Below are positions 1-32,000 of a stretch of 32,000 nucleotides of DNA, piece by piece. Source of the DNA: Halomicronema hongdechloris C2206. Lineage in GTDB: Bacteria > Cyanobacteriota > Cyanobacteriia > Phormidesmidales > Phormidesmidaceae. The stretch is taken from positions 4,410,001 through 4,442,000 of the forward strand of contig NZ_CP021983.2 of assembly GCF_002075285.3 (NCBI RefSeq), given 5' to 3'. Within the stretch, counting starts at the first letter, position 1, and each line of letters opens with the position of its first letter. Position numbers and translations under genes: made by a program. Under the pieces are notes generated by a model. It did no database searches and was not told the DNA's origin. It was given only the letters and a program-made list of their open reading frames with translations.

Positions 1-1
1 C

Positions 2-283
2 CTAGGCGTCGGTAATGGAGACATGGACGTGCAGGCCAACAGAGGCCAGCAGTTGGATCAGCTGTTCCACACTGAAGCGGCTAATTTCACCATTCATCAG
101 GTTCTGGATGCGGGGCAAAGGTTGTTTCAACCGCATAGCCGCTTGCTCTGGGGTCCATCCCTGTTGTTGGATGTAGCGCTGTAGCCCTAGCATCAGGTCA
201 GTGCGAATTTGCAGACTGCGGGCCTCTGCGATCGCAAGTTCCGAAATTCCCTGCAGTGATTGCAGGTCTTGAACGGGTATCAT
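2..283 (-). CDS. XRE-family helix-turn-helix protein, antitoxin-like; no partner toxin visible in the window
   Basis: 93-aa ORF with ATG at 283 and TAG at 2-4. The C-terminal half (WTPEQAAMRLKQPLPRIQNLMNGEISRFSVEQLIQLL) reads as an XRE-type HTH of the small HigA/COG5606-like regulators. Confidence 0.7.
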   Translation of the reverse strand: MIPVQDLQSLQGISELAIAEARSLQIRTDLMLGLQRYIQQQGWTPEQAAMRLKQPLPRIQNLMNGEISRFSVEQLIQLLASVGLHVHVSITDA

Positions 284-381
284 AGCAAGTTCTGCCTGAG
301 CGGAATAAATGCAGCGAGTGCACCACCATCTTAGGGGATGTGATAACGTCGATAACCTGCTTCTGCATTTTCCTTAATACT

Positions 382-1311
382 ATGCTTGATAACTTTTCCC
401 TCATGATTCACGGGGGCGCTGGCGCCCTAGAGCACATCAAACGGGAAGGCAGTGAAACTGATTTTATTCATAGTATTCGCCGCATTTTAGAAGCGGGACG
501 CCAGATTTTGGCAGCAGAGGGAACCGCCTTGGATGCCGTAGAATACTGCGCCGCCGCCCTAGAAGATGATCCCCTCTACAACGCCGGGCATGGTTCGGTA
601 CTCAACGAGTATGGCGAAGTCGAAATGGACGCCGCTATTATGCACGGGCATGGCTTACAGGCAGGAGCAGTGGCCGGAGTCACCAACATCAAAAACCCCA
701 TTCGTCTGGCCCGGCAGGTGCTGGAGAAAAGCGAGCATGTGATGCTGGTGGGCAAAGGCGCCATGGAGTTTGCCAAGCTCTGGGGCATTCCCATGATGAC
801 CGATGACTACTTCGTCATCACTTCCCGCATTCAGCAATGGCGAGAGGCCCAAAAGGCCGGTGGCATGATGCTGGATCACGAAGATGCCGAACCCCAGCGT
901 AAATTCGGTACCATCGGCGCCGTCGCCTGGGACTGTCAGGGTCACCTGGCCGCCGCCACCTCCACTGGCGGCATCGTCAACAAGCGCTGGGGCCGCGTCG
1001 GCGACAGCCCCATCATTGGGGCCGGGGTATTCGCAGACAATACCACCTGCGCCGTATCAGCCACCGGCTATGGAGAACAGTTTCAGCGCACTGTGCTGAG
1101 CAAGATGATCTCCGACTTCATCTATTTCAAAGGCATGACCGCCCCAGAAGCCGCCGCTGCCGGGATTCAGTACCTAGTAGAGACGCTCAACGGCCTAGGG
1201 GGCGTCATCGTTATCGACCGCCAGGGACGCTGCGCTGCCGGTCATTCCACCTCCGGCATGATCTACGGCTATATCCAACAGGGCCGGGAAAGTATCTGCC
1301 GATTGTCATGA
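382..1311 (+). CDS. iaaA: isoaspartyl peptidase / plant-type L-asparaginase (Ntn hydrolase)
   Basis: MIHGGAG N-terminus, NAGHGS, the autoprocessing/nucleophile motif GTIGAVA, and GGIVNKRWGRVGDSPIIGAG. The track ORF opens at a GTG (340), so the ATG at 382 (MLDNFSLMIHGG) is the more likely start. Confidence 0.9.
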   Translation: MLDNFSLMIHGGAGALEHIKREGSETDFIHSIRRILEAGRQILAAEGTALDAVEYCAAALEDDPLYNAGHGSVLNEYGEVEMDAAIMHGHGLQAGAVAGVTNIKNPIRLARQVLEKSEHVMLVGKGAMEFAKLWGIPMMTDDYFVITSRIQQWREAQKAGGMMLDHEDAEPQRKFGTIGAVAWDCQGHLAAATSTGGIVNKRWGRVGDSPIIGAGVFADNTTCAVSATGYGEQFQRTVLSKMISDFIYFKGMTAPEAAAAGIQYLVETLNGLGGVIVIDRQGRCAAGHSTSGMIYGYIQQGRESICRLS

Positions 1312-1338
1312 ACGCCCCTGGGCTACCTAACCGATGAC

Positions 1339-1358
1339 AGCCGCTACAGGAAGCGGCT
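1339..1358. terminator. 7-bp stem hairpin (AGCCGCT-ACAGGA-AGCGGCT) 28 nt after the iaaA stop
   Basis: Perfect inverted repeat read directly from the sequence. There is no U-tract, so it is a weak intrinsic-terminator candidate. Confidence 0.3.
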
Positions 1359-1479
1359 AGCCATGTTCATCATGTCGCCCATATTCACATCACTATCGCC
1401 ATCGGCATCCAAAAAGGCATTGAGAACAGGGTTATCCCCTTGATTCCCCTGGAACGAATCGCACACGTTGCCTATCACC

Positions 1480-1550
1480 CGCCGCAGATAACCTCGAATA
1501 CCCAACCGTCACCTTTTAATGGTCGGATGCATGGGTGTTGTTATACGGCG
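1480..1550 (-). other. attC-like imperfect hairpin no. 1 (recombination-site candidate)
   Basis: The arms CGCCGCAGATAACC...ACCCAACCG (left) and GTCGGATGCATGGGTGTTGTTATACGGCG (right) pair with bulges. It lies 4 nt 3' of the YgiT-type gene stop and shares its right-arm sequence with the sites at 3917-3945 and 6320-6347. Confidence 0.35.
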
Positions 1551-1554
1551 TTGG

Positions 1555-1797
1555 CTATGCTGATTCTAGATGAGTAACCGGAATTTGTTCGGTTCTCTCA
1601 GGAGCTTTCGCTCCAGTTGCAACTGCATGAACTGCATGAAGAATATTGGCTGAGTAGTACCGATTGCCACAAGTATCACAAACACCGATCGTTACATCTT
1701 CGAGGATGACAAATCCATCTCTATGTTTGAATGCCTCACGTTTGACAGTTCGGGGTTGAACAGTTCCTTCGCAATACTCACATTTGTATCCGTACAT
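1555..1797 (-). CDS. YgiT-type zinc-finger protein (MqsA-like antitoxin N-domain)
   Basis: 80 aa beginning MYGYKCEYCEG. Two CxxC pairs (CEYC ... CDTC) have the spacing typical of YgiT zinc fingers. It starts 3 nt after the upstream DUF4258 gene. Confidence 0.8.
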   Translation of the reverse strand: MYGYKCEYCEGTVQPRTVKREAFKHRDGFVILEDVTIGVCDTCGNRYYSANILHAVHAVATGAKAPERTEQIPVTHLESA

Positions 1798-1800
1798 ACG

Positions 1801-2040
1801 TTAGCCCTCAAGTTCAGTGACTTCATAAACCGTGATGATTAAATAGCGTCCGGTACTAGCGAAACGTCCAACCATGCCAACAGGTGTTCGTTGATCTAGC
1901 GCATTTCCCACTACTACATATTTTGTGCCTCTGGGGTCATCCTTTTCAACCTGGATAACTCGACCGTTCAAAACGGCCTCTTCCACATCTAAAATAGTCA
2001 GCATATCCTCAGCCATCTCTTCCATTGCGTGGGCTGACAC
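1801..2040 (-). CDS. DUF4258-type toxin, partner of the YgiT antitoxin; the 5' end abuts a MITE
   Basis: SAHAMEEMAEDML..VEEAVLNG..I...DDPRG resembles the DUF4258 'HA...M..R.I' N-terminus, but only about 2 residues precede it. The only start in the track is a GTG at 2040 that overlaps the MITE end, with internal ATGs at 2025 and 2016. Confidence 0.7.
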   Translation of the reverse strand: MSAHAMEEMAEDMLTILDVEEAVLNGRVIQVEKDDPRGTKYVVVGNALDQRTPVGMVGRFASTGRYLIITVYEVTELEG

Positions 2041-2159
2041 TCATTGACTGACAAAACCGGCTAGAACCCAGACTATCCAAAGGGTCAGGGAACCTGCCCC
2101 CTACAGCATCCGAAATCTGGTAAGGGCGCGGTTTCCGCGCCCAATGCAGAATCTTTTGT
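2040..2159. mobile_element. MITE copy 1, right terminal inverted repeat truncated
   Basis: About 120 bp, nearly identical (2 substitutions seen) to 27219-27340. It carries the left TIR TTGACTGACAAAA and the internal hairpin GGGCGCGG-TTT-CCGCGCCC. The right end stops at CTTTTGT without CAGTCAA. Confidence 0.7.
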
Positions 2160-2407
2160 TCCTCAAGAACGGCTCGAAGATCATCTATTTCCTTCACAGA
2201 ACGAGCTGCCAGGCAATCGAGTATCCACTTTTGTTGCGCCTGAACGTATCCCCATATAAAAGTCAGAATGATAGTCAAAACAATAAGAGCTCCGATCACA
2301 GGCAGGTTTGGTGTAGTCTTTTAGTATAATACTCCAACAACAGCCATAATTACAGATTCAAAAACAAGGAAGAAGTTTAGACGCTCATTGAAATAGTGTT
2401 CTCATGC

Positions 2408-3693
2408 GGGGACCTCGATTAATCAGTTTTCTTTAGCTAATGGCGTCTCATTTGAGACCGTCAAGGTGACTCAAAGAGAGTCCGAGACATTCCACCGAAA
2501 AAAGCTTCCCATTTTGACAAAAAAATAGGGTTGGAAGACCACGTTTAAGTCGATTTCCCGGCTTTAGGTCCGATTATCTTGCCAGTTCAGCCGATGCAGC
2601 ACGTTGGGTTTCGAGACACACAAACCGCTTCAGGTTATACACCAGATTTTTCAGACCTAGCTGGGTCTGGGCACGGGCTAACCCGATGCTGCGCACCACC
2701 TTGCCACCCATGCTGGTGACGACATCTCCGAAGATGTGCTCCACTCTGGCACGGGTTTTGGAGCGCTCTCGATTCGCGGTTTTCTGGGCCTCGCTTAAGG
2801 GGCGATTGCGATAGGCCCGTTCATTTATATGCGGCTCAAACCCTATCAATTTCAGCACCTCGACAATCAGCACGGAGAGATACGCACTATCGGCCCAAAG
2901 TCCATCGCCGCTATTATCCGCATCGAGCAACTCGCCCAAGACCTGCGAGTCATGGACCGACGCATCGGTGACGCTGTAACGGCGAATGAGCTTAAAGCCG
3001 GCATCACTATTGATGTGGTTTTTGTAGCCGTAGTGGGACGTTCCATTTTTCTTCGTCCATCGGGCGTCAACATCTTTTTGCGCGAGCTGATGAGGGGTCT
3101 CTTGCCACTCAACGGGAACCTCACCCTGCTTGAGGGTTTGGTTCTCCTCACGGGTGTTGCGTTGTTTGGGAACTGGAATCAAGGTCGCATCCACAATTTG
3201 CCCATCCTTGGCGGCATAGCCTGCCCCTTGCAGATAGGCTCCAAACTGCTCGAACAACGCCTCCACCAAGCCGTGCTGCTGCAACTGTTCTCGGAAGAGC
3301 CACACCGTCGTTGCATCCGGGACTCTATCCTCAAGCCCCAAACCGAGAAATTGCATGAAGGACAGTCGGTCGTTGACCTGATATTCCAGTTCGTCATCGC
3401 TGATGTTGTATAGCTTTTGCAGCACCAGCATCTTGAAGAGTAACAGGACATCGGTGGGGTTACGACCGGCCTGGCTTTTGCGCGGTTTCTCTCGAATCTG
3501 CATCAGAATCGGACGAAAGGTCTCCCACGGCACCAGTTGATTCAACCGATTCAGTACCGCCTTCTTTTGCTCCAGTTTTTGCTGGCGCTCTTCGATATCC
3601 CAGAATCCCTGCTGTCCCATGGCCTGCGTGCTTCAACAAAACCGACCTTATGATCTCATACTGAGATCGCTCTGGCTATTTTTCGAGGTGCCC
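2408..3693 (-). mobile_element. IS5-family insertion sequence, apparently intact
   Basis: Imperfect terminal inverted repeats GGGGACCTCGATTAATCAG (2408-2426) and the reverse complement of 3675-3693, GGGCACCTCGAAAAATAGC. A 4-bp direct repeat ATGC flanks it at 2404-2407 and 3694-3697. It contains a single transposase ORF. Confidence 0.85.
2574..3620 (-). CDS. IS5-family DDE transposase
   Basis: 348 aa. The N-terminal DUF772-like segment is LLFKMLVLQKLYNISDDELEYQVNDRLSFMQFLGL. The DDE region is IVDATLI ... WADSAY ... RARVEHIFG. Confidence 0.92.
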   Translation of the reverse strand: MGQQGFWDIEERQQKLEQKKAVLNRLNQLVPWETFRPILMQIREKPRKSQAGRNPTDVLLLFKMLVLQKLYNISDDELEYQVNDRLSFMQFLGLGLEDRVPDATTVWLFREQLQQHGLVEALFEQFGAYLQGAGYAAKDGQIVDATLIPVPKQRNTREENQTLKQGEVPVEWQETPHQLAQKDVDARWTKKNGTSHYGYKNHINSDAGFKLIRRYSVTDASVHDSQVLGELLDADNSGDGLWADSAYLSVLIVEVLKLIGFEPHINERAYRNRPLSEAQKTANRERSKTRARVEHIFGDVVTSMGGKVVRSIGLARAQTQLGLKNLVYNLKRFVCLETQRAASAELAR

Positions 3694-3853
3694 ATGCAAA
3701 ATATGCTCAAGCAAGCTGTAGGACTGCTTATTATTATGTTCATCAGACATTACCAATAACCTCAAGACACTATATCAATAGTAACTTCAAAAGATTTTAA
3801 CCCCTTATCACTAAAAAATAATCTTCAAGCACTGCCTTACCGATAAGTGGAGT

Positions 3854-3945
3854 CGTATAACGTTCCGGTTGAGCGGCTACCGATAGCATATGCCATAATA
3901 CCGACCAACTTTGTTAGTCCGCTCCAATCGGGTTGTTATGCGGCG
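3854..3945 (-). other. attC-like imperfect hairpin no. 2
   Basis: Left arm CGTATAACGTTCCGGTTGAGCGG and right arm GTCCGCTCCAATCGGGTTGTTATGCGGCG, with ATAAC/GTTAT and GAGCGG/CCGCTC pairing and bulges between. It lies 24 nt 3' of the PIN gene stop. Confidence 0.35.
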
Positions 3946-3969
3946 CTTTTTCAAGCATTGAGTTGCTTA

Positions 3970-4383
3970 TCACTGAACTTGAATGACATCAAAAGTCCCC
4001 TGATTTTCAATGCGATAGAACAGGAAATCTGAATCGAGTGTGAGAATTCGCCGGAAATTCGTCCTCTCAGCTACCAGCACCAATGACGCATCAGCCAAGT
4101 CCATTGGTCGATCTTGATACTGCTCCATCAGCTCTAATAAACGGGAGTAGTATTGCTCTTGAATTTCGTAAATCACCAAAAGCTTATCTAAGAGCAGTTG
4201 CCCTAGCTGTTTTTGCATCGTCCACCCGCCTCGATGAAGAGCTAAATACATAGCTTCTGTGAAACAAGACCAAGTTGTGAGAAGAGGTGAAGCAATCCGC
4301 CTTACAGCATTTCGGTAAGCTGAGTGTTTTGGCTGAGTGCGATCAACTAAACAAAGCAAAACTCCTGCATCACAAAGAATCAC
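3970..4383 (-). CDS. PIN-domain toxin (VapC-like)
   Basis: 137 aa with the acidic quartet in PIN order: ILCDAG, FTEAMY, LADASLV, TLDSDF. The GTG start overlaps the upstream stop (GTGA). Confidence 0.85.
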   Translation of the reverse strand: MILCDAGVLLCLVDRTQPKHSAYRNAVRRIASPLLTTWSCFTEAMYLALHRGGWTMQKQLGQLLLDKLLVIYEIQEQYYSRLLELMEQYQDRPMDLADASLVLVAERTNFRRILTLDSDFLFYRIENQGTFDVIQVQ

Positions 4384-4640
4384 AATTCTAGACCCTGCTG
4401 CCGATATTTGGATACCAGATGTTGTTGATAGTCGCTAACTGAGTCGGTTGACGTGACTTCTAGATGATCAACAGACTCGAACCACCTTGTCCACGCTTGA
4501 GCCAACTCATCTTTACGATCATCAGTGATAGTGCTATGCCGACGCCGATACATCAAAAAATCTATAAAATCATTGACTTGTTGAAGAAGCGAATCAGGTA
4601 GTTGCTGCAATTTAGCAATAGCAGTTTCACGAATCGTCAT
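4380..4640 (-). CDS. VapB-like antitoxin (DUF2281-type)
   Basis: MTIRETAIAKLQQLPDSLLQQVNDFIDFLMYR matches the '..LP...L.EV.DFI.FL' signature. The ATG at 4640 overlaps the CHAT-TPR stop (ATGA). The track ORF begins further upstream at 4658. Confidence 0.65.
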   Translation of the reverse strand: MTIRETAIAKLQQLPDSLLQQVNDFIDFLMYRRRHSTITDDRKDELAQAWTRWFESVDHLEVTSTDSVSDYQQHLVSKYRQQGLEL

Positions 4641-6142
4641 GAGAGTAACCACCTCCAAAATCCTTTACGGTCTTCTTCAATCTGTCTTTCAATTTGTTTT
4701 ACTTTCTCAAGGGCACTACAGTAACTTTCAATATCTTTCTTCCGTTTGTACAAAGATGCAGCCTCTTGATAGTCTGCAATAGCGCTCTGCCTATTCTGGT
4801 TTTCATTCAGAAAATAGTTCTTCGTCATTCCTCGAATTTCATAGGCAAAGGCAAAGCTAGGCTTGAGACAAATAACCTCAGTAAAATCTGCTATCGCACC
4901 TTGAAAATCCTGTACTTGAAACTTTGCTATTCCACGCGCCAAATGAGCCTTTGTACAGGCCGGTTGAAGACGAATAGCCTCATCAAGATCTTCGATAGCA
5001 CTCTGATGATCTTCTAATCTATCTTTAGTTCTTCCACGATCACAGAAATTACAAGAATAATCTGGTCGAAGACGAATCGCTTCATTGAAATCTTCGATAG
5101 CTTCTTGGTATTTCCTTAAATGATGCTTTACTTTTCCACGGCAGTTGTAAGCGTGGAAGTTATTTGGTTGAAGATGAATTGCTTCACTGAAATCTAGAAT
5201 CGCGCCTCGAAAATCTCGGCAATCTTTCAATTGATCTCTTGCCTTTCCTCGATCTATGTAGAGGTCTGGATTATTTGGTTGAAAACTAATAGCTGTTGTA
5301 TAGTCACCAATCGCGCCCTCGTAATCCTCCAACCGACTTTTTGCCAATCCACAAGCTCTGTAGGCTTTGGCATAATCTGGCTGGAGACAAATAGCTTCTT
5401 GAAAATCTATAATCGCCCCCTGATAATTGCCTGCCTTGTATTTCTCTTTTCCCCGTTCAAAAAAGTCTTCCGCAGTCAATGATTCTGTAGTTTTGGGAAG
5501 TTCCTCAGCAGCTTGCTTAAAAGGGAAAGTTCTCAAATCGAGATTTTGATTCTCTACATCTTCATGCCCAATTTTTTTTGCGAAAAGGACTGGAGTTAAG
5601 TGTTCTGGAATGCCCTCTAGCTGAATCGCATTACAACCCAGTTCATAGGCAAATTCAACTGATTCTCCAGCTCCTAATGCAGTGTAGAAACCGACAGAAA
5701 ATTCAATTGCTGCACGATCACCAATTGCCTGATTCATCCCAATCACGTAATCAATGTGTTGTGCGATCGCCTCAGCTTGAAACTCTGAGTAGCAGGCATT
5801 CAGAACAACGCACTCTACATGATTAGAAAAAAGTTTGAATAAGTTAGCTAACGCATCTGAGCCAATCAGCTTAAGATTTCCTGCCACATCCTCAAAAGCC
5901 AAACCATCTTTCCCTGAACCATGACCTGTGAAATGAACGACCTGTGGCTTAAAGTCCAGCATCGCTTGTTGAATATCTCTTGTACGAGTGGCTCCAGTCG
6001 AGTTAATCGGTACTTTGCCATATCCAGCTAGACGGAGACGCTCCTTAATTTCTCTCTCTTCTTCTTGCAGACGCAAGCTTCCTGTTCCCTTGGGGTTCGC
6101 AGCCAGCAGTAAGATCGATTTTGAGACGACGCCGTCATTCAT
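4637..6142 (-). CDS. CHAT (caspase-like) protease domain fused to about 7 TPR repeats
   Basis: 501 aa. The N-terminal ~190 aa carry a His/Cys dyad context, VVHFTGHGS and VECVVLNACYS, followed by YVIGM..IGD..AIEFSVGFY. The C-terminal part has repeated ..AI.DF.EAI.L.P.. TPR units. Confidence 0.85.
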   Translation of the reverse strand: MNDGVVSKSILLLAANPKGTGSLRLQEEEREIKERLRLAGYGKVPINSTGATRTRDIQQAMLDFKPQVVHFTGHGSGKDGLAFEDVAGNLKLIGSDALANLFKLFSNHVECVVLNACYSEFQAEAIAQHIDYVIGMNQAIGDRAAIEFSVGFYTALGAGESVEFAYELGCNAIQLEGIPEHLTPVLFAKKIGHEDVENQNLDLRTFPFKQAAEELPKTTESLTAEDFFERGKEKYKAGNYQGAIIDFQEAICLQPDYAKAYRACGLAKSRLEDYEGAIGDYTTAISFQPNNPDLYIDRGKARDQLKDCRDFRGAILDFSEAIHLQPNNFHAYNCRGKVKHHLRKYQEAIEDFNEAIRLRPDYSCNFCDRGRTKDRLEDHQSAIEDLDEAIRLQPACTKAHLARGIAKFQVQDFQGAIADFTEVICLKPSFAFAYEIRGMTKNYFLNENQNRQSAIADYQEAASLYKRKKDIESYCSALEKVKQIERQIEEDRKGFWRWLLS

Positions 6143-6257
6143 GAGAGTTTGGCAGGGCAGAGGGCGAATTGACTCTACTCAATTGTATGCCAGACGGAGG
6201 AATTATCCTTTGGCACCGTGAGAACATTGAAACAGCATCCCCACAGGTAGCCTCGAG

Positions 6258-6398: not shown

Positions 6399-6737
6399 TC
6401 AACCCAATCTACAAGATTGGCGATTGTACTCAATCTCTACCCCCATTTGTTGTGCTCGCTTCACATGGGCAGGAATCATGACTGAACAGATTAGTGACCA
6501 AAGCTCAACCCATGCTGCTTTAGTATCATCATTAAACCGATCCCCTAGCATTCTTTCAAAAGTTGTAACAATAGCTAGCCCCACTGGACTATAGTGCTTA
6601 GCCTTTGTTTGATACTGAACATGACGCTCTGCTAAATCCTGTAAAATTGGGATGAGTTCTGGATCGATTTCTAGACGTTCTTCTCCCAGCATCTCATCGA
6701 ATGTGCCTGGTAATAAGCTTAAAGCAGCATCAACCAT
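6399..6737 (-). pseudogene. 5'-truncated globin-domain gene (E-H helices only)
   Basis: MVDAALSLL..(F-helix) ILQDLAERHVQY .. KHYSPVGLAIVTTFERMLGDRF..AAWVELWSLICSVMI aligns by eye with the C-terminal two thirds of bacterial globins. The roughly 50 N-terminal residues (A-C helices) are absent. The ORF upstream of 6737 is non-globin read-through. Confidence 0.6.
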
Positions 6738-7086
6738 TTGTGTTTCCCTCCTGGAAGCGGTCAGTGGATCCACGCTCTCAGGTGGTAGGGCGTCATCATG
6801 TCTATGAGCAATCGGTGCAGCGGGCCGTGAAGCAGGCGATTCAACCAGCTGGTATTGCTAAGCATGGTGGGTGCCACACGTTTCGTCATAGTTTTGCCAC
6901 CCACCTGCTGGAAGATGGTTACGATATTCGCACCGTGCAGGAGCTGCTGGGGCATAAAGATGTGAAAACCACCATGATTTATACCAAAGGCATTTCAGAG
7001 CACGAGACAACATTGTCAGGTCTGAAATGCCTTCGAATGGGCTGAATCGGGGTGGGCAAGGCGTGCGGAGTCCGCTAGATAGCTAA
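6737..7086 (+). pseudogene. intI: integron-type tyrosine recombinase (IntI) remnant: 5'-truncated, with a frame break near the catalytic Tyr
   Basis: [74 protein letters not shown]. After a 56-bp hairpin-containing insertion the reading continues in another frame as [14 protein letters not shown]-stop (7042-7086). The DPRS..V.RHH segment is the IntI-specific insertion absent from XerC/D. Confidence 0.78.
6989..7031. repeat. perfect 11-bp-stem hairpin inside the intI remnant
   Basis: GGCATTTCAGA (6989-6999) and TCTGAAATGCC (7021-7031) are separated by a 21-nt loop. The hairpin sits exactly where the HV codons of MIYTHVLNRGG are expected. Confidence 0.6.
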
Positions 7087-27564: not shown

Positions 27565-27638
27565 GGGACTGTAGTTCAACCGGTTAGAGCACCGCCCTGT
27601 CACGGCGGAAGTTGCGGGTTCGAATCCCGTCAGTCCCG
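27565..27638 (+). tRNA. tRNA-Asp (anticodon GTC)
   Basis: A 74-nt cloverleaf folded by hand: acceptor GGGACTG/CAGTCCC, D stem GTTC/GAGC, anticodon stem CCGCC/GGCGG with loop CTGTCAC, and T arm GCGGG-TTCGAAT-CCCGT. The discriminator is G, and no CCA is encoded. Confidence 0.93.
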
Positions 27639-28474: not shown

Positions 28475-29299
28475 ATGGCTAAGCAGCGCCTGGATGCCCT
28501 GTTGGTGGAACGGGGGCTATGTGACTCGCGGCAGATGGCCCAGCGGTTGATTCGGGCTGGAGCGGTGAGGGTCAACCAGCAGCTGGTGGATAAACCCGGC
28601 CATGCGATCGCAGCCAATGCAGATATCCAGGTGAAGCGCCGAGCACCCTATGTGTCTCGTGGCGGCGAAAAACTCGCCAAAGCCCTGGCCGACTTCGAGA
28701 TTTCCGTTTGCGATCGCATCTGCCTAGACGGCGGCATTTCCACCGGCGGCTTCAGCGATTGTCTACTGCAGGCAGGCGCCCGCTTGGTCTATGGCATCGA
28801 CGTCGGCTATGGCCAGGTAGCCTGGAAGCTACGGCAAGACCCGCGCCTGGTGCTGCGGGAGCGCACCAATCTGCGCCATCTCACCCCCGAGACCCTCTAT
28901 GGGCCAGACCGCTCTTGGCCCGATCTAGGCGTCATGGATGTCTCCTTTATCTCCCTAACCAAGGTGCTGCCCGCCTTCTGGCGATTGCTGCAGCCACCTA
29001 GAGAAGTGGTGCTACTGGTGAAACCCCAGTTTGAAGTGGGCCGGGAACAGGTGGGGAAAAAGGGCGTGGTTCGCGATGCCAAGGTCCAGGCCCAGGCCAT
29101 CTGGACCGTGTGGCAAACGGCCCAAGCGTTGGGCTGGCACTATCGCGGCCTCACCTGGTCGGCCATGGTGGGACCGGCCGGAAATATCGAGTATTTGCTA
29201 TGGCTGTCGGCAGATCCTGGCGTATCCCTGGAAGGGCCAGAGTTAGCGATGATCCAAGATCGCACCCAAACCGCTCAGACGACTCTATTGAAGTCGTAG
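28475..29299 (+). CDS. tlyA: TlyA-family rRNA 2'-O-methyltransferase (S4 domain plus FtsJ-like domain)
   Basis: RLDALLVERGL..SR..A..LI.AG.V.VN (S4 domain), YVSRGG.KL..AL..F, and the SAM motif CLD.G.STGGF.DCLLQ.GA..VYG.DVGYGQ. Confidence 0.9.
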   Translation: MAKQRLDALLVERGLCDSRQMAQRLIRAGAVRVNQQLVDKPGHAIAANADIQVKRRAPYVSRGGEKLAKALADFEISVCDRICLDGGISTGGFSDCLLQAGARLVYGIDVGYGQVAWKLRQDPRLVLRERTNLRHLTPETLYGPDRSWPDLGVMDVSFISLTKVLPAFWRLLQPPREVVLLVKPQFEVGREQVGKKGVVRDAKVQAQAIWTVWQTAQALGWHYRGLTWSAMVGPAGNIEYLLWLSADPGVSLEGPELAMIQDRTQTAQTTLLKS

Positions 29300-29388
29300 G
29301 GACGGAGCAGATTCATAGTGAGAAGAGAGGACTGGAGTCAAGGCATTAAATGCCCTGCCTTACTGGCGATGAAGATTTACTGAAGGTC

Positions 29389-29633
29389 TCTGCATAATCC
29401 CCCACAGCAGACCTATTATACAGAGGAAGATCCGGCTAATCACCCTATTTGGGAGTGTTATCAAGGCATTGATGGGCATAACATCCCGATTTGGCGATAT
29501 AGCCCGAACAAGATCTGCATAACACCCTATTTTGGGTGTTTATGCCGAAAATTTTCAGCCTAACTACTTTTAGCAGAGATGATATTCGACTTTAAGCCTG
29601 CCTAGTCACCTCGACTGGGGGTGTTATGCAGAA
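29389..29633. repeat. cluster of palindromic repeats with core CTGCATAACACCC / GGGTGTTATGCAG
   Basis: Copies are TCTGCATAATCCCCC (29389-), TCACCCTATTTGGGAGTGTTAT (~29441-), GCATAACATCCC (~29476-), the near-complete hairpin CTGCATAACACCC-TATTTT-GGGTGTTTATGCC (29514-29545) and GGGGGTGTTATGCAGA (29618-29633). The outermost copies are inverted relative to each other. Confidence 0.6.
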
Positions 29634-29896
29634 TAGAGGAGAGCAAAGCAGGCTAAACAATAGTTAGCTTCCAAGAGATCAGATCCCCTCTTTAAAATCC
29701 TTGATTAAAACATGCTCAATTAGTACAGTTGCATTTTACTTGAAGCAAAGATATAGAAGGTAGACAGTCGTTAGTATTTGGGTAGCAGTGTGCAGCAGCT
29801 ACAGACTCACAGCAGTATAATGTACTATTCACATGCTCAATGTCAGGCTGTTTAATTCTAGAGTCGCTTAGTTAAGACCGAAATGGAGTACTTTAG

Positions 29897-31207
29897 GTGC
29901 TTACTCAAATCGAATTAAAAAATTTCAAGAGCTACAGATCAGGCACTTTGCAACTTGGACGGTTGACCGTACTCATCGGGGCTAATGCTTCTGGAAAGAG
30001 CAACGTAATTGAAGCGCTACGCTTGCTAGCAAGAATTGCTGAGGGAGAACGACTTAGCCTTTTGGGTGGGCCTTATAAGCAAGACGAAACAATTTTTAGG
30101 GGAGGAGTAGAGAATCTTGGCTATCGGGGTTCAAAATCTTTCGGGCTTTCTTGTGTAACAACAGAGCCAGAGTGGAAAGATCTCTCAATCGATTTAAGTC
30201 TTGGAGGAGATGGAGATCTTCATGTTACCAAGGAAAAAATTACAAGTCATACTTCAACAGTTCCTTTGTATGAAATTACAAGCGCACCTCAAGGGGCTGG
30301 AAGTGACGTATTTGTTACTTATAACAATTTTGCCAGAGGTGGGAAAAAACCTAGCATAGTATGCAGCAGTCATATGGCAATTTTTACACAACTTTTGAGT
30401 GATATCCGCTTCCGTCCAGAGAACACTAAAAGTCGAAAAATAATTCCTAAGGTTGCTGAACGATATGTTCAATGGTTAAGTAGCATCGTATTTCTTGAGC
30501 CTGAGCCAAGCTCAATGCGCTCTTATGGTCATAAAGTTGATAAGGTACTCAAAGAGCATGGTGAAAACCTTTCAGGGGTAATCTATAACTTATGTCTTAA
30601 CCCAAATGTCAAAAGTTCGGTTCTGGATTTCGTTCAAAGTTTGCCTGAACAGGATATTGAAAATATCGATTTCATAGAAACACCTCGTGATGAGGTTATG
30701 CTACAGCTAACTGAAACCTTTGGCGGTGCATCGACTACCTATGATGCTTCCATACTTTCAGATGGAACTTTACGCGTGCTCTCTATTGCTGCAGCAATGC
30801 TTTCTGCACCTGAGCAAAGTTTAGTTGTTATTGAAGAAATCGATAACGGCGTACATCCTAGCAGAGCAGCAGATTTGTTAGAGCGGATTTCTAGTATTGC
30901 AAAGAACCGTGATTTACGGGTTCTAATTAGCAGCCATAATCCCGCACTTCTTGATGCCCTGCCTGATGAAGCCATTCCTGAAACTGTATTTTGCTATCGA
31001 AGTCCTCAAGATGGATCAAGTCAGTTAGTTAGATTGCAGGACATTCCCGACTATCCCGAACTCATTGCTCAGGGGTCTGTTGGGCACCTCATGACTCGCG
31101 GACTATTAGAACGGTTTGTTAAGCAACATCCCGGAACAGAGCAGAAAAAGAAGAAAGCAATGGAGTGGCTAGCTTCTCTCGCTGTGGTAGGGGAACCGAG
31201 AGAATGA
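29897..31207 (+). CDS. ABC/SMC-like AAA ATPase (AAA_15/21-type, as in PARIS AriA / Septu PtuA-class proteins)
   Basis: 436 aa with GTG start and GGAG 8 nt upstream. IELKNFKSY..., Walker A GANASGKSN, signature-like LSDGTLRVL, Walker B LVVIEEIDNGVHP and H-loop LISSHNP. Confidence 0.85.
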   Translation: MLTQIELKNFKSYRSGTLQLGRLTVLIGANASGKSNVIEALRLLARIAEGERLSLLGGPYKQDETIFRGGVENLGYRGSKSFGLSCVTTEPEWKDLSIDLSLGGDGDLHVTKEKITSHTSTVPLYEITSAPQGAGSDVFVTYNNFARGGKKPSIVCSSHMAIFTQLLSDIRFRPENTKSRKIIPKVAERYVQWLSSIVFLEPEPSSMRSYGHKVDKVLKEHGENLSGVIYNLCLNPNVKSSVLDFVQSLPEQDIENIDFIETPRDEVMLQLTETFGGASTTYDASILSDGTLRVLSIAAAMLSAPEQSLVVIEEIDNGVHPSRAADLLERISSIAKNRDLRVLISSHNPALLDALPDEAIPETVFCYRSPQDGSSQLVRLQDIPDYPELIAQGSVGHLMTRGLLERFVKQHPGTEQKKKKAMEWLASLAVVGEPRE

Positions 31208-31659
31208 AAGCAGTTGCAATTGTTGATACATCTATATTCTGCAATGTTCTCGATATTCCTCATATGAATAGTGAACGGACTCAGGTAATGCAAAAGTTGA
31301 AAGATTTACTTGAGGAAAGTACTAATCTTCTTCTACCTATGGCTGCCGTCTATGAAACAGGGAATCATATTGCTCAACTCAGTGATGGTGGAAACCGGCG
31401 TCAATTTGCTGAAGTTTTCATTGAGCAAGTCAAGAAAGCGATAAAAGGGGAAGCACCTTGGCAAGTTATGCAGCTGCCAGATATGGAGGAGGTTGGAGAA
31501 TGGCTAAGTAACTTTCCTGATTCAGCAATGCGTGGCGCAGGTATGGGAGACTTATCAATAATCAAAGAGTGGGAGAAGACGATTAGGATAACGCCCAATC
31601 ACCGTATTTTTATATGGTCTTTAGATGGCGATCTTCAGGGATATGATCATATTCCTTGA
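31204..31659 (+). CDS. PIN-like putative nuclease, translationally coupled to the ATPase
   Basis: The ATG at 31204 overlaps the ATPase TGA (ATGA). Acidic residues fall in PIN order: VAIVDTSIF, AAVYETGNH, GMGDLSII, IWSLDGDL. The fold assignment is an inference from motif order only. Confidence 0.55.
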   Translation: MKAVAIVDTSIFCNVLDIPHMNSERTQVMQKLKDLLEESTNLLLPMAAVYETGNHIAQLSDGGNRRQFAEVFIEQVKKAIKGEAPWQVMQLPDMEEVGEWLSNFPDSAMRGAGMGDLSIIKEWEKTIRITPNHRIFIWSLDGDLQGYDHIP

Positions 31660-31905
31660 TCCTAATAATTAAGCTTTAGCTAGCAGTGTTGACTTTTATG
31701 CAAAAATCTGTTCCCTTTCGAGAAAATCTTATTGATTCTAGGCTTTCGCAAAAAGCTGACAATTCAAATGCAGCGGACAGTTTTGAGCCGTTGCTGCTGA
31801 GTTTAAGGTTGTCTGCTGCCGATGATTTGAGCCGTTCCCTCTCCAGGCAAGCCTTTGACTTGAGAAAGTCGCATCAATGCGTCGCAACCTCCTCGGAACC
31901 TAACG

Positions 31906-32000
31906 CTATGATTTGCTGCCGTAGTAGAAGGCGATTTCTCTGTCTTTGAGGGGCGCAAAGCCAGCTTCCTGCAGCATGTGCTCCAGATCAGCCAGGGAAA
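31906..32000 (-). CDS. 3' end of a gene running off the window (possibly a SAM-dependent methyltransferase C-terminus)
   Basis: The minus-strand frame reads SLADLEHMLQEAGFAPLKDREIAFYYGSKS-stop (TAG at 31906-31908). The 'L..ML.EAGF' tail is common in class-I methyltransferases. The fragment is too short to be sure. Confidence 0.35.
   Translation of the reverse strand, partial: SLADLEHMLQEAGFAPLKDREIAFYYGSKS

Follow-up and report, generated by a model that had tools for sequence, protein, structure and literature searches.

The 32,000-nt stretch of the Halomicronema hongdechloris C2206 genome analysed here (contig NZ_CP021983.2, positions 4,410,001 to 4,442,000; hereafter the window) carries a two-gene operon, an ABC-type ATPase gene followed by the gene for a PIN-fold protein, that is a member of the catalogued phage-defence candidate family PDC-M07. 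The first gene (A; 29897..31207, forward strand, GTG start) encodes an AAA_21/AAA_15-type ATPase of 436 aa and the second (B; 31204..31659, forward strand) a stand-alone VapC-like PIN-domain predicted nuclease of 151 aa. Searches with the profile hidden Markov models (HMMs) of PADLOC-DB v2 matched A to PDC-M07A PDLC04392 (E 2.6e-194, 644 bits, residues 1-429 against model positions 1-428 of 432) and B to PDC-M07B PDLC04395 (E 5.1e-61, residues 1-149 against model positions 1-157 of 161), and the arrangement of A then B, adjacent and on the same strand, recurs in about 50 loci. The family corresponds to cassette CAS_00050 (FAM_00005>>FAM_01367), with 406 occurrences in RefSeq v209 (Payne et al. 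2024, bioRxiv 10.1101/2024.01.29.577857), and is one of 145 untested candidates identified in that work by guilt-by-embedding in BREX, DISARM or type I restriction-modification (R-M) operons. As the same study validated HEC-03, an ABC ATPase with a VapC-like PIN protein that protects E. coli, requires both of its genes and is toxic on induction, the combination of ATPase and PIN protein is an already described theme. An earlier note on this DNA had presented the pair as an undescribed module and plausibly a new variant; its reading of the architecture, the likely role and the horizontal acquisition has held, while its claim of novelty fails, because both proteins are full-length matches to an existing set of defence HMMs.

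The ATPase has the features expected of its class. The open reading frame (ORF) at 29897-31207 starts with MLTQIELKNFKSY and contains the motifs GANASGKSN, LSDGTLRVL, VVIEEIDNGVHP and SSHNP, reproducing the size and motifs given in the earlier note; Walker A, ABC signature, Walker B, D-loop and H-loop are all present, and K34, LSDGT, E313/E314, D316, H320 and H347 are 96–100% conserved across 46 orthologues. In Pfam, the protein matches AAA_21 with 104.7 bits (gathering threshold 27) and AAA_15 with 68 bits (gathering threshold 32.1). An AlphaFold2 model built from a 46-sequence alignment (predicted local distance difference test, pLDDT, 88.5) is nearest among solved folds to the PtuA chains of Septu and retron type I-A, followed by the heads of SMC and Rad50 (E of roughly 1e-12 to 1e-14). 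Outside M07, the nearest PADLOC relatives of A are the Toprim-partnered ATPase HEC-01A, PDC-M25A, AriA, AbiLi, NsnB and MAD3.

The model of B (AlphaFold2, 41-sequence alignment; pLDDT 94.7, predicted template modelling score, pTM, 0.88) consists of beta-alpha-alpha repeats in the three-layer alpha/beta/alpha arrangement of PIN domains, and in a Foldseek search of the PDB its best 50 matches were all PIN domains, with a probability of about 1.0 for the best. These matches include PAE0151, FitB, several M. tuberculosis VapCs, SMG6 and HARP, with 2fe1 (E 9e-4), 5x3t (template modelling score 0.65/0.71) and 5wzf as examples. Four acidic residues, D8, E51, D116 and D141, do not vary among 41 close homologues and are strongly conserved in 128 cluster representatives of 30–52% identity (D8 98%, E51 96%, D116 91%, D141 91%); in the model each is placed at or just past the end of beta1, beta2 or beta4, or where helix 114-129 starts. 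The PIN-like fold proposed earlier from the segments VDTS, YETGNH, GDLSII and SLDGDL, all of which are present and contain these four residues, is borne out by fold and motif; B is a VapC-like PIN-fold protein with an intact D-E-D-D metal-binding site, and hence a putative nuclease. The wider family of B comprises 1001 clusters at 50% identity (E<=1e-3), nearly all of them stand-alone proteins of about 150 aa; no exact-sequence record of the window protein was found. Residues 10-45 of B also resemble the staphylococcal protein A B-domain (phmmer E 1e-10 against multi-domain tandem constructs), through a stretch encoded within 31204-31340 (F-C-N-V-L-D-I-P-H-M-N-S-E-R...L-K-D-L) that recalls its helices 1-2; with the family profile the E-value was 0.8 and the likeness fell below the Pfam threshold, and we take it to be a probably coincidental local helix motif.

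A PIN protein need not be an executioner, and B might instead be an adaptor or nucleic-acid-binding module, as NsnC is, or a DNA-directed nuclease resembling flap endonucleases (FEN) that works with an SMC-like ATPase on foreign DNA. In Menshen, the ABC ATPase NsnB is paired with proteins carrying inactive PIN-like domains (the NsnC N-domain), and A matches the NsnB models with E 5e-25; the fold of A resembles the heads of the DNA-handling proteins SMC and Rad50, and T5 flap endonuclease is among the weak fold matches of B, at rank 42. The D-E-D-D quartet, which is 91–98% conserved in B, is nevertheless absent from NsnC, the operon has no second effector domain or gene, and the best fold matches are the RNA-cleaving VapC and FitB proteins rather than FEN enzymes, all of which makes such a role improbable in our view.

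B is obligately paired with the ATPase and usually coupled to it in translation. Among 59 genome loci found with the B alignment, in which A homologues were placed by tblastn, an A homologue immediately precedes B wherever the sequence reaches far enough upstream, the exceptions being contig edges and decaying copies. The hosts belong to at least five phyla and include Cyanobacteria, Gammaproteobacteria (Thiosymbion), Bacteroidota in a broad sense (Salinibacter/Salinivenus and Hymenobacter), Gemmatimonadota (Longimicrobium), Chloroflexota (Caldilineaceae) and Entotheonella. The junction between the genes is tight: 17 of 49 have an ATGA overlap and 12 a 1-nt overlap, and most of the others are within 15 nt. 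No third conserved gene was found beside the pair among 145 flanking ORFs. Copies are embedded within other defence operons, as hsdM-hsdS-[A-B]-hsdR on two Vibrionaceae plasmids, pIFL1_3 of V. campbellii (where AbiEii adjoins) and pAQU1 of P. damselae, and as PglW-[A-B]-PglX in a gammaproteobacterial metagenome-assembled genome (locus L037), and small mobilizable plasmids carry the pair beside toxin-antitoxin (TA) genes, with RelE/ParE and TumE toxins as neighbours. The occurrence of an 87% identical ATPase in another phylum (Ca. Electrothrix) and of plasmid-borne copies in Vibrio, Photobacterium, Acinetobacter, Lactococcus and Nostocales indicates wide horizontal spread; no copy was found in 50,697 phage records. 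The data thus support the horizontal acquisition of the pair and its defence-type genomic associations. Several copies are decaying: in L019 the ATPase gene is split by an insertion of about 1.3 kb, in L050 it has an internal deletion and B is intact, and in L058-L061 B is truncated or short remnants of both genes are left.

This distribution bears on the possibility that the operon is a housekeeping pair for RNA processing or repair that happens to lie in an AT-rich region. Ordinary metabolic genes do flank it in the window and at several other loci, which counts in favour of such a role. A patchy phyletic distribution, ATPases 87% identical across phyla, near-identical DNA in unrelated contexts, carriage on plasmids, copies embedded in R-M and BREX operons and the frequency of decaying copies all speak against it, and we consider a housekeeping role very improbable.

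We favour the explanation that the operon is a PDC-M07 system in which the ATPase controls a PIN nuclease that aborts infection, and that it arrived as a 2,171-bp integron-type cassette; taken as a whole, this account seems to us reasonably probable. The sensor-effector model is the most economical one: the closest structural and profile relatives of A, namely PtuA, AriA, HEC-01A, AbiLi, NsnB and MAD3, all control partner nucleases in defence, and B has a complete VapC-type active site. The self-contained, translationally coupled operon would provide an SMC/PtuA-like ATPase and a VapC-like PIN nuclease; by analogy with Septu and retron PtuAB, PARIS AriAB and HEC-03, an oligomer of the ATPase may hold or gate the nuclease, restraining or licensing it until a phage-derived cue releases or activates it. 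The nuclease would then cut an essential RNA (tRNA or rRNA, as VapC enzymes do), whereupon translation would stop and the infection abort. The operon would have reached its present place, beside an attI-like array between tlyA and a convergent host gene, on an integron-type cassette with its own promoter.

A rival reading makes the pair primarily a TA or addiction module: B would be a PIN toxin, the ATPase would serve as its regulator or non-canonical antitoxin, and the module would have been selected for stabilising its carrier (integron cassette arrays, plasmids or R-M operons) rather than for blocking phages. The PIN/VapC group includes classic TA toxins, the best fold matches of B are VapC toxins, Pfam describes AAA_21 as 'putative AbiEii toxin, Type IV TA system', and the plasmid copies adjoin RelE/ParE and TumE toxins. 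TA pairs such as DUF433+DUF5615 are moreover among the cargo at the same palindrome platforms (see below), the stabilising effect of TA cassettes on chromosomal integrons is well known, and HEC-03 is toxic when induced. On the other hand, neither the gene order nor an ATPase of 436 aa whose catalytic motifs are fully conserved resembles what is seen in antitoxins, and phage protection by HEC-03 needed both genes. Decayed copies have lost A and B together, or A alone (L019 and L050), which is unexpected for an essential antidote; since some of them lost A and kept B, A is unlikely to be an indispensable one. On balance we regard an addiction module as unlikely, although TA and abortive infection are not mutually exclusive.

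The second part of the favoured explanation concerns the DNA that carries the pair. The AT-rich insert and repeat cluster pointed out in the earlier note most likely represent an integron-type cassette beside an attI-like palindrome array. The cassette (29664..31834, forward strand; 2,171 bp, GC content 0.418) is bounded by AATAG/TTAGCTT and GAGCCG/TTCCCTC, where the slash marks the border, and is 93% identical in nucleotide sequence to a copy in Filamentous cyanobacterium CCP5 (L004) over 29662-31836 and 88.6% identical to one in Spirulina major (L001) over 29753-31800. Altogether, this 2.1–2.2 kb unit occurs with 89–93% identity in four unrelated contexts, the copies being flanked by unrelated genes (GT8-like, LarE-like and, in L063, the fourth context, PstS). 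At the right border, five copies align to ...GAGCCG/TT and then diverge (TTAGCT, TTAGAC, TTAGGC, TTCCCT); at the left border, copies start at ...A G/TTAGCTT, with sharp divergence directly before GTTAGCTT. Beyond both G/TT points, the sequences of the window, L004, L007, L063 and L001 are unrelated. The pair therefore appears to sit on a gene cassette that is mobile between cyanobacteria, as judged from these alignments. L063 is a JGI contig with a 98% identical B; its positions 1-3443, about 3 kb upstream of the cassette, encode a Lon_C-domain protein of >760 aa and a 486-aa partner, which could be another defence-type pair.

Within the cassette, a TATAAT (-10-like) box at 29816..29821 on the forward strand, about 75 nt upstream of the ATPase start, is conserved in an alignment of the window with L004, L001, L009 and L014 and may act as a promoter; a simple promoter scan made no call at this box. 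A GGAG Shine-Dalgarno sequence (29885-29888, forward strand) precedes the ATPase start. The last 87 nt of the cassette fit, in orthologous copies, the attC order RYYYAAC...GTTRRRY, with R'' AGCTAAC and R' GTTAGCT, GTTAGAC or GTTAGGC; the corresponding attC-like site of the window (31754..31840, forward strand) is degenerate, with R'' AGCTGAC at 31754-31760 and R' GTTCCCT at 31834-31840. When folded, the bottom strand of L004 forms an R-stem, a bulged L-stem and a terminal loop (-23.8 kcal/mol, z -2.67), as does that of L007 (R-stem, bulged L-stem and loop; z -2.34); L063 has the same stems with a stability no better than shuffled sequences (z -0.17). The attC-like tail of the window also contains TTTGAGCCGTT as two exact copies (31782-31792 and 31826-31836) 44 nt apart, the second of which ends at the cassette border; the repeat may correspond to the L'/R' region or stem from an earlier duplication. 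Cyanobacteria are known to carry integrons, integrase-less attC clusters are common, and integron cassettes encoding phage defence have been documented (bioRxiv 10.1101/2024.07.02.601719).

The repeat cluster upstream of the cassette, noticed earlier and confirmed here, is an attI-like array (29388 to about 29663-29668, forward strand) of 4-5 partly degenerate palindromic units of ~35-41 nt that ends in the half-unit GCAGGCTAAACAATAG. The cassette has a comparable array in front of it in L004 and L063, whereas L001 lacks one; the unit HMM gave no match in 60-odd other PDC-M07 loci. A metagenome scan for the unit-unit junction combined with the unit HMM recovered about 35 further arrays, none with PDC-M07 nearby. 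In 12 other loci the array takes the form of a directional element of constant length (153-156 nt) composed of a TTATACTGAAA leader, three ~41-nt units whose cores read GCCTAAT...ATTAGGC, and a CTCTAATAAYGA/GTTA junction. Such three-palindrome elements lie at L004:4438-4592, L063:6307-6461, L076:6800-6954, L102:354-508, L123:2336-2491, L149:1212-1365, L151:4191-4345 and other positions, and each marks the edge of variable, low-GC cargo of defence or TA type; the complement of the leader reads TTTCAGTATAATC, a perfect -10 box facing away from the cargo.

The units are in-register palindromes (74.7% of positions paired, as opposed to 34–54% when slid), and no covariation beyond that of shuffled alignments was detected in them (118 of 500); a hairpin and a protein-binding site are indistinguishable from these data. 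RNAalifold applied to the whole 210-nt element returned repeat-to-repeat pairings only, with no covariation support. Two other identities were considered for the array and rejected: an antitoxin RNA like those of type III TA systems (unrelated cargo follows, integrase genes adjoin and covariation is lacking) and a CRISPR-like array (the units in L004 and L063 are contiguous, without spacers). A third, a genome-wide repetitive extragenic palindrome or miniature inverted-repeat transposable element, is unsupported by the sequences searched, as no convincing further copy of the core or unit profile was found in the other ~29 kb of the window and the unit HMM matched none of the 60-odd other PDC-M07 loci.

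The low-GC cargo lies on the GTTA side of the arrays and differs between loci. Profile matches identified DUF433+DUF5615/PIN_10 in L076, a KAP NTPase (PDC-S49) in L151, an NNH3/NACHT-like protein in L123, a type IIG R-M system in L102 and an ATPase pair in L149, and the cargo of L084 was judged by eye, from an N-terminal motif, to be an IS110-like transposase. Since L123 and L149 share an upstream 153-aa gene and the array but differ in cargo, the array is part of the locus while its cargo turns over, a pattern suggestive of cassettes being swapped at a docking site that has no integrase. In L063, L096, L111, L083 and L089, the array has a gene for a tyrosine recombinase immediately upstream, on the opposite strand, and the integrases of L111 and L083 pass TIGR02249 with 489.8 and 414 bits (cut-off 265); that of L063 is an IntI N-terminal fragment on the divergent strand, 384 nt from the array, that aligns to the TIGR02249 N-terminus. 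An array beside a divergent integrase gene is the intI-attI-cassette layout of an integron. Next to the intact integrase gene of L111 (13380-13560), the units have canonical GTTAGAC and GTTAGGC cores with a period of ~41-42 nt; most integrase-less arrays have ATTAGGC, with A in place of G at the crossover position.

These arrays may represent an undescribed class of cyanobacterial integron platforms, with the array as a docking site into which defence and TA cassettes are swapped in trans, and with PDC-M07 as a bona fide abortive-infection system spread in this way. On this account, the ~155-nt element would occupy many chromosomal loci, mostly without an adjacent integrase, and would have received PDC-M07, the KAP NTPase, the NACHT-like protein, the type IIG R-M system and the DUF433-PIN pair as cargo. 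We put this broader proposal forward tentatively, as it is less probable than the favoured explanation that it extends.

The window itself contains what looks like a decayed integron. A C-terminal intI remnant (6701-7045, forward strand) lies 22.7 kb away from the PDC-M07 cassette; it shares 64% identity with residues 225-307 of the L111 IntI and matches Pfam Phage_integrase with E 2.9e-20. Next to it lies a low-GC block (0.40-0.45; 3500-6150) of minus-strand genes, including a CHAT+TPR protein (4637-6142) and a VapBC-like pair of DUF2281 and PIN proteins (3970-4658), followed by an attC-like palindrome at about 3857-3941 (GCATAAC...GTTATAC) and an insertion sequence transposase, DDE_Tnp_1 (2574-3620).

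Several observations weigh against the favoured explanation of a cassette-borne, ATPase-controlled abortive-infection nuclease. A later paper still terms PDC systems unvalidated, and a literature search for 'PDC-M07' returned no paper and no published test or fold description. The model infers the substrate of the nuclease (RNA or DNA), its trigger and the part played by ATP. B had no match in Pfam, NCBIfam or PHROG, and sequence and profile searches of the PDB with B found no PIN protein; B is thus without detectable sequence similarity to Pfam PIN families or solved PIN proteins, so that its assignment rests on fold and motif. Regarding the neighbourhood pattern anticipated in the earlier note, the conserved pairing of A and B was confirmed in the 59 loci, but defence-island enrichment is unsupported by our sample, as few of the 145 flanking ORFs match defence models. 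No integrase adjoins the array of the window, and the attC-like copy of the window has lost its R pairing and folds no better than shuffles (z +0.45); because this site has decayed, the window copy is probably fixed in place.

The immediate surroundings of the pair agree with their earlier description. The ATG of ORF B (31204-31206) overlaps the TGA of ORF A (31205-31207) in an ATGA at 31204-31207, as had been claimed, and the alignment of homologues favours the 151-aa start (MKAVAIVDTS) over an upstream GTG at 31165. The reported AT-rich segment is real, with GC content falling from ~0.56-0.62 to 0.39-0.47 from about 29300 onward, and the cassette value of 0.418 compares with 0.533 in the remainder of the window. 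The gene on the 5' side of the insert is indeed tlyA, encoding a TlyA-type S4+FtsJ methyltransferase (28475-29299, forward strand), and a minus-strand ORF that ends at 31906-31908, with 30 aa inside the window, makes the flanking gene ends convergent, again as described. The region upstream of the pair (15.4-29.3 kb) holds housekeeping genes (LpxA, aminotransferases, LysE, CDF and others). HIP1 sites are absent from the 2.7-kb segment, which had been taken as noteworthy, and number 21 in the 29.3 kb outside it; with ~1.9 expected, P(0) is ~0.14, and the absence was set aside as statistically weak evidence of foreign DNA. A tRNA-Asp(GTC) gene at 27565-27638 lies 1.7 kb upstream of the insert, away from the cassette border and without signs of an integration site. 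An Rfam scan of 29250-32000 found no family at gathering score; the sole sub-threshold match, to HTH-XRE and antisense to gene B within which it lies (25 bits; threshold 49.8), was treated as chance.

While the ATPase and PIN system as first framed is not new, given that PADLOC flags the family and the analogous HEC-03 has been validated, the present analysis adds to PDC-M07 a confident PIN fold, a conserved catalytic quartet, strict linkage of A and B across phyla and a set of mutational targets. This makes PDC-M07 a suitable choice for experimental validation, also in cyanobacteria, in which tests of defence systems have so far been few. What appears to be new is its context on an integron-type cassette beside an attI-like platform, PDC-M07 being unmentioned in the integron papers examined. 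If confirmed, the platform would offer a handle for mining cyanobacterial defence cassettes and would point to an unusual attI-like site, perhaps able to function with no integrase nearby.

The operon and its carrier can be compared with several described systems. The BRiC defence cassettes (bioRxiv 10.1101/2024.07.02.601719) are likewise compact defence or TA units with G/TT bounds and a 3' attC-like palindrome, found at different arrays; the cassette described here differs in being larger than typical (2.2 kb, two genes and a putative promoter of its own) and in lying beside an unusual three-palindrome array, often without a nearby integrase. With VapBC, the operon shares a PIN fold and a D-E-D-D site in B that resemble those of the VapC and FitB toxins, but B is unrecognised by Pfam PIN models, and its upstream partner is a 436-aa ATPase where VapBC has VapB, a small antitoxin that binds DNA. 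In PARIS, the ATPase sequesters a nuclease that cleaves tRNA upon release. Its AriA is an AAA_21/AAA_15 ATPase, and partial AriA HMM matches to A reach E 2e-28; these models cover only residues 268-353 and 1-46 of A, and the effector AriB is a Toprim/DUF4435 protein rather than a PIN protein. The PtuA chains of Septu and retron type I-A PtuAB are the closest solved structures to the A model, and PtuA, too, is an ABC ATPase, serving as scaffold and regulator for a small nuclease. A nonetheless scores 32 bits against the Septu PtuA model NCBIfam NF041760 (cut-off 500), the PtuB effector is an HNH rather than a PIN nuclease, and the operon has neither a reverse transcriptase nor multicopy single-stranded DNA.

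The closest parallels are HEC-03 and PDC-M07 itself. HEC-03 has the same order of an ABC ATPase followed by a small PIN protein, and its presumed logic is alike; it belongs to another sequence family, as no HEC-03B match to B was found at E<=1, a level at which the PADLOC matches of B were PDC-M07B models, one spurious PtuB match and nothing else, and HEC-03A is absent from the best 25 of 131 PADLOC families matched by A. For PDC-M07, both profile HMMs are matched end to end, gene order and strand are as in the window, and the embedded copies in BREX, DISARM and type I R-M operons that define the family have embedded counterparts among the loci found here. There is no family-level difference; the window copy stands out from the defining members in being solo, unembedded and carried on an integron-type cassette.

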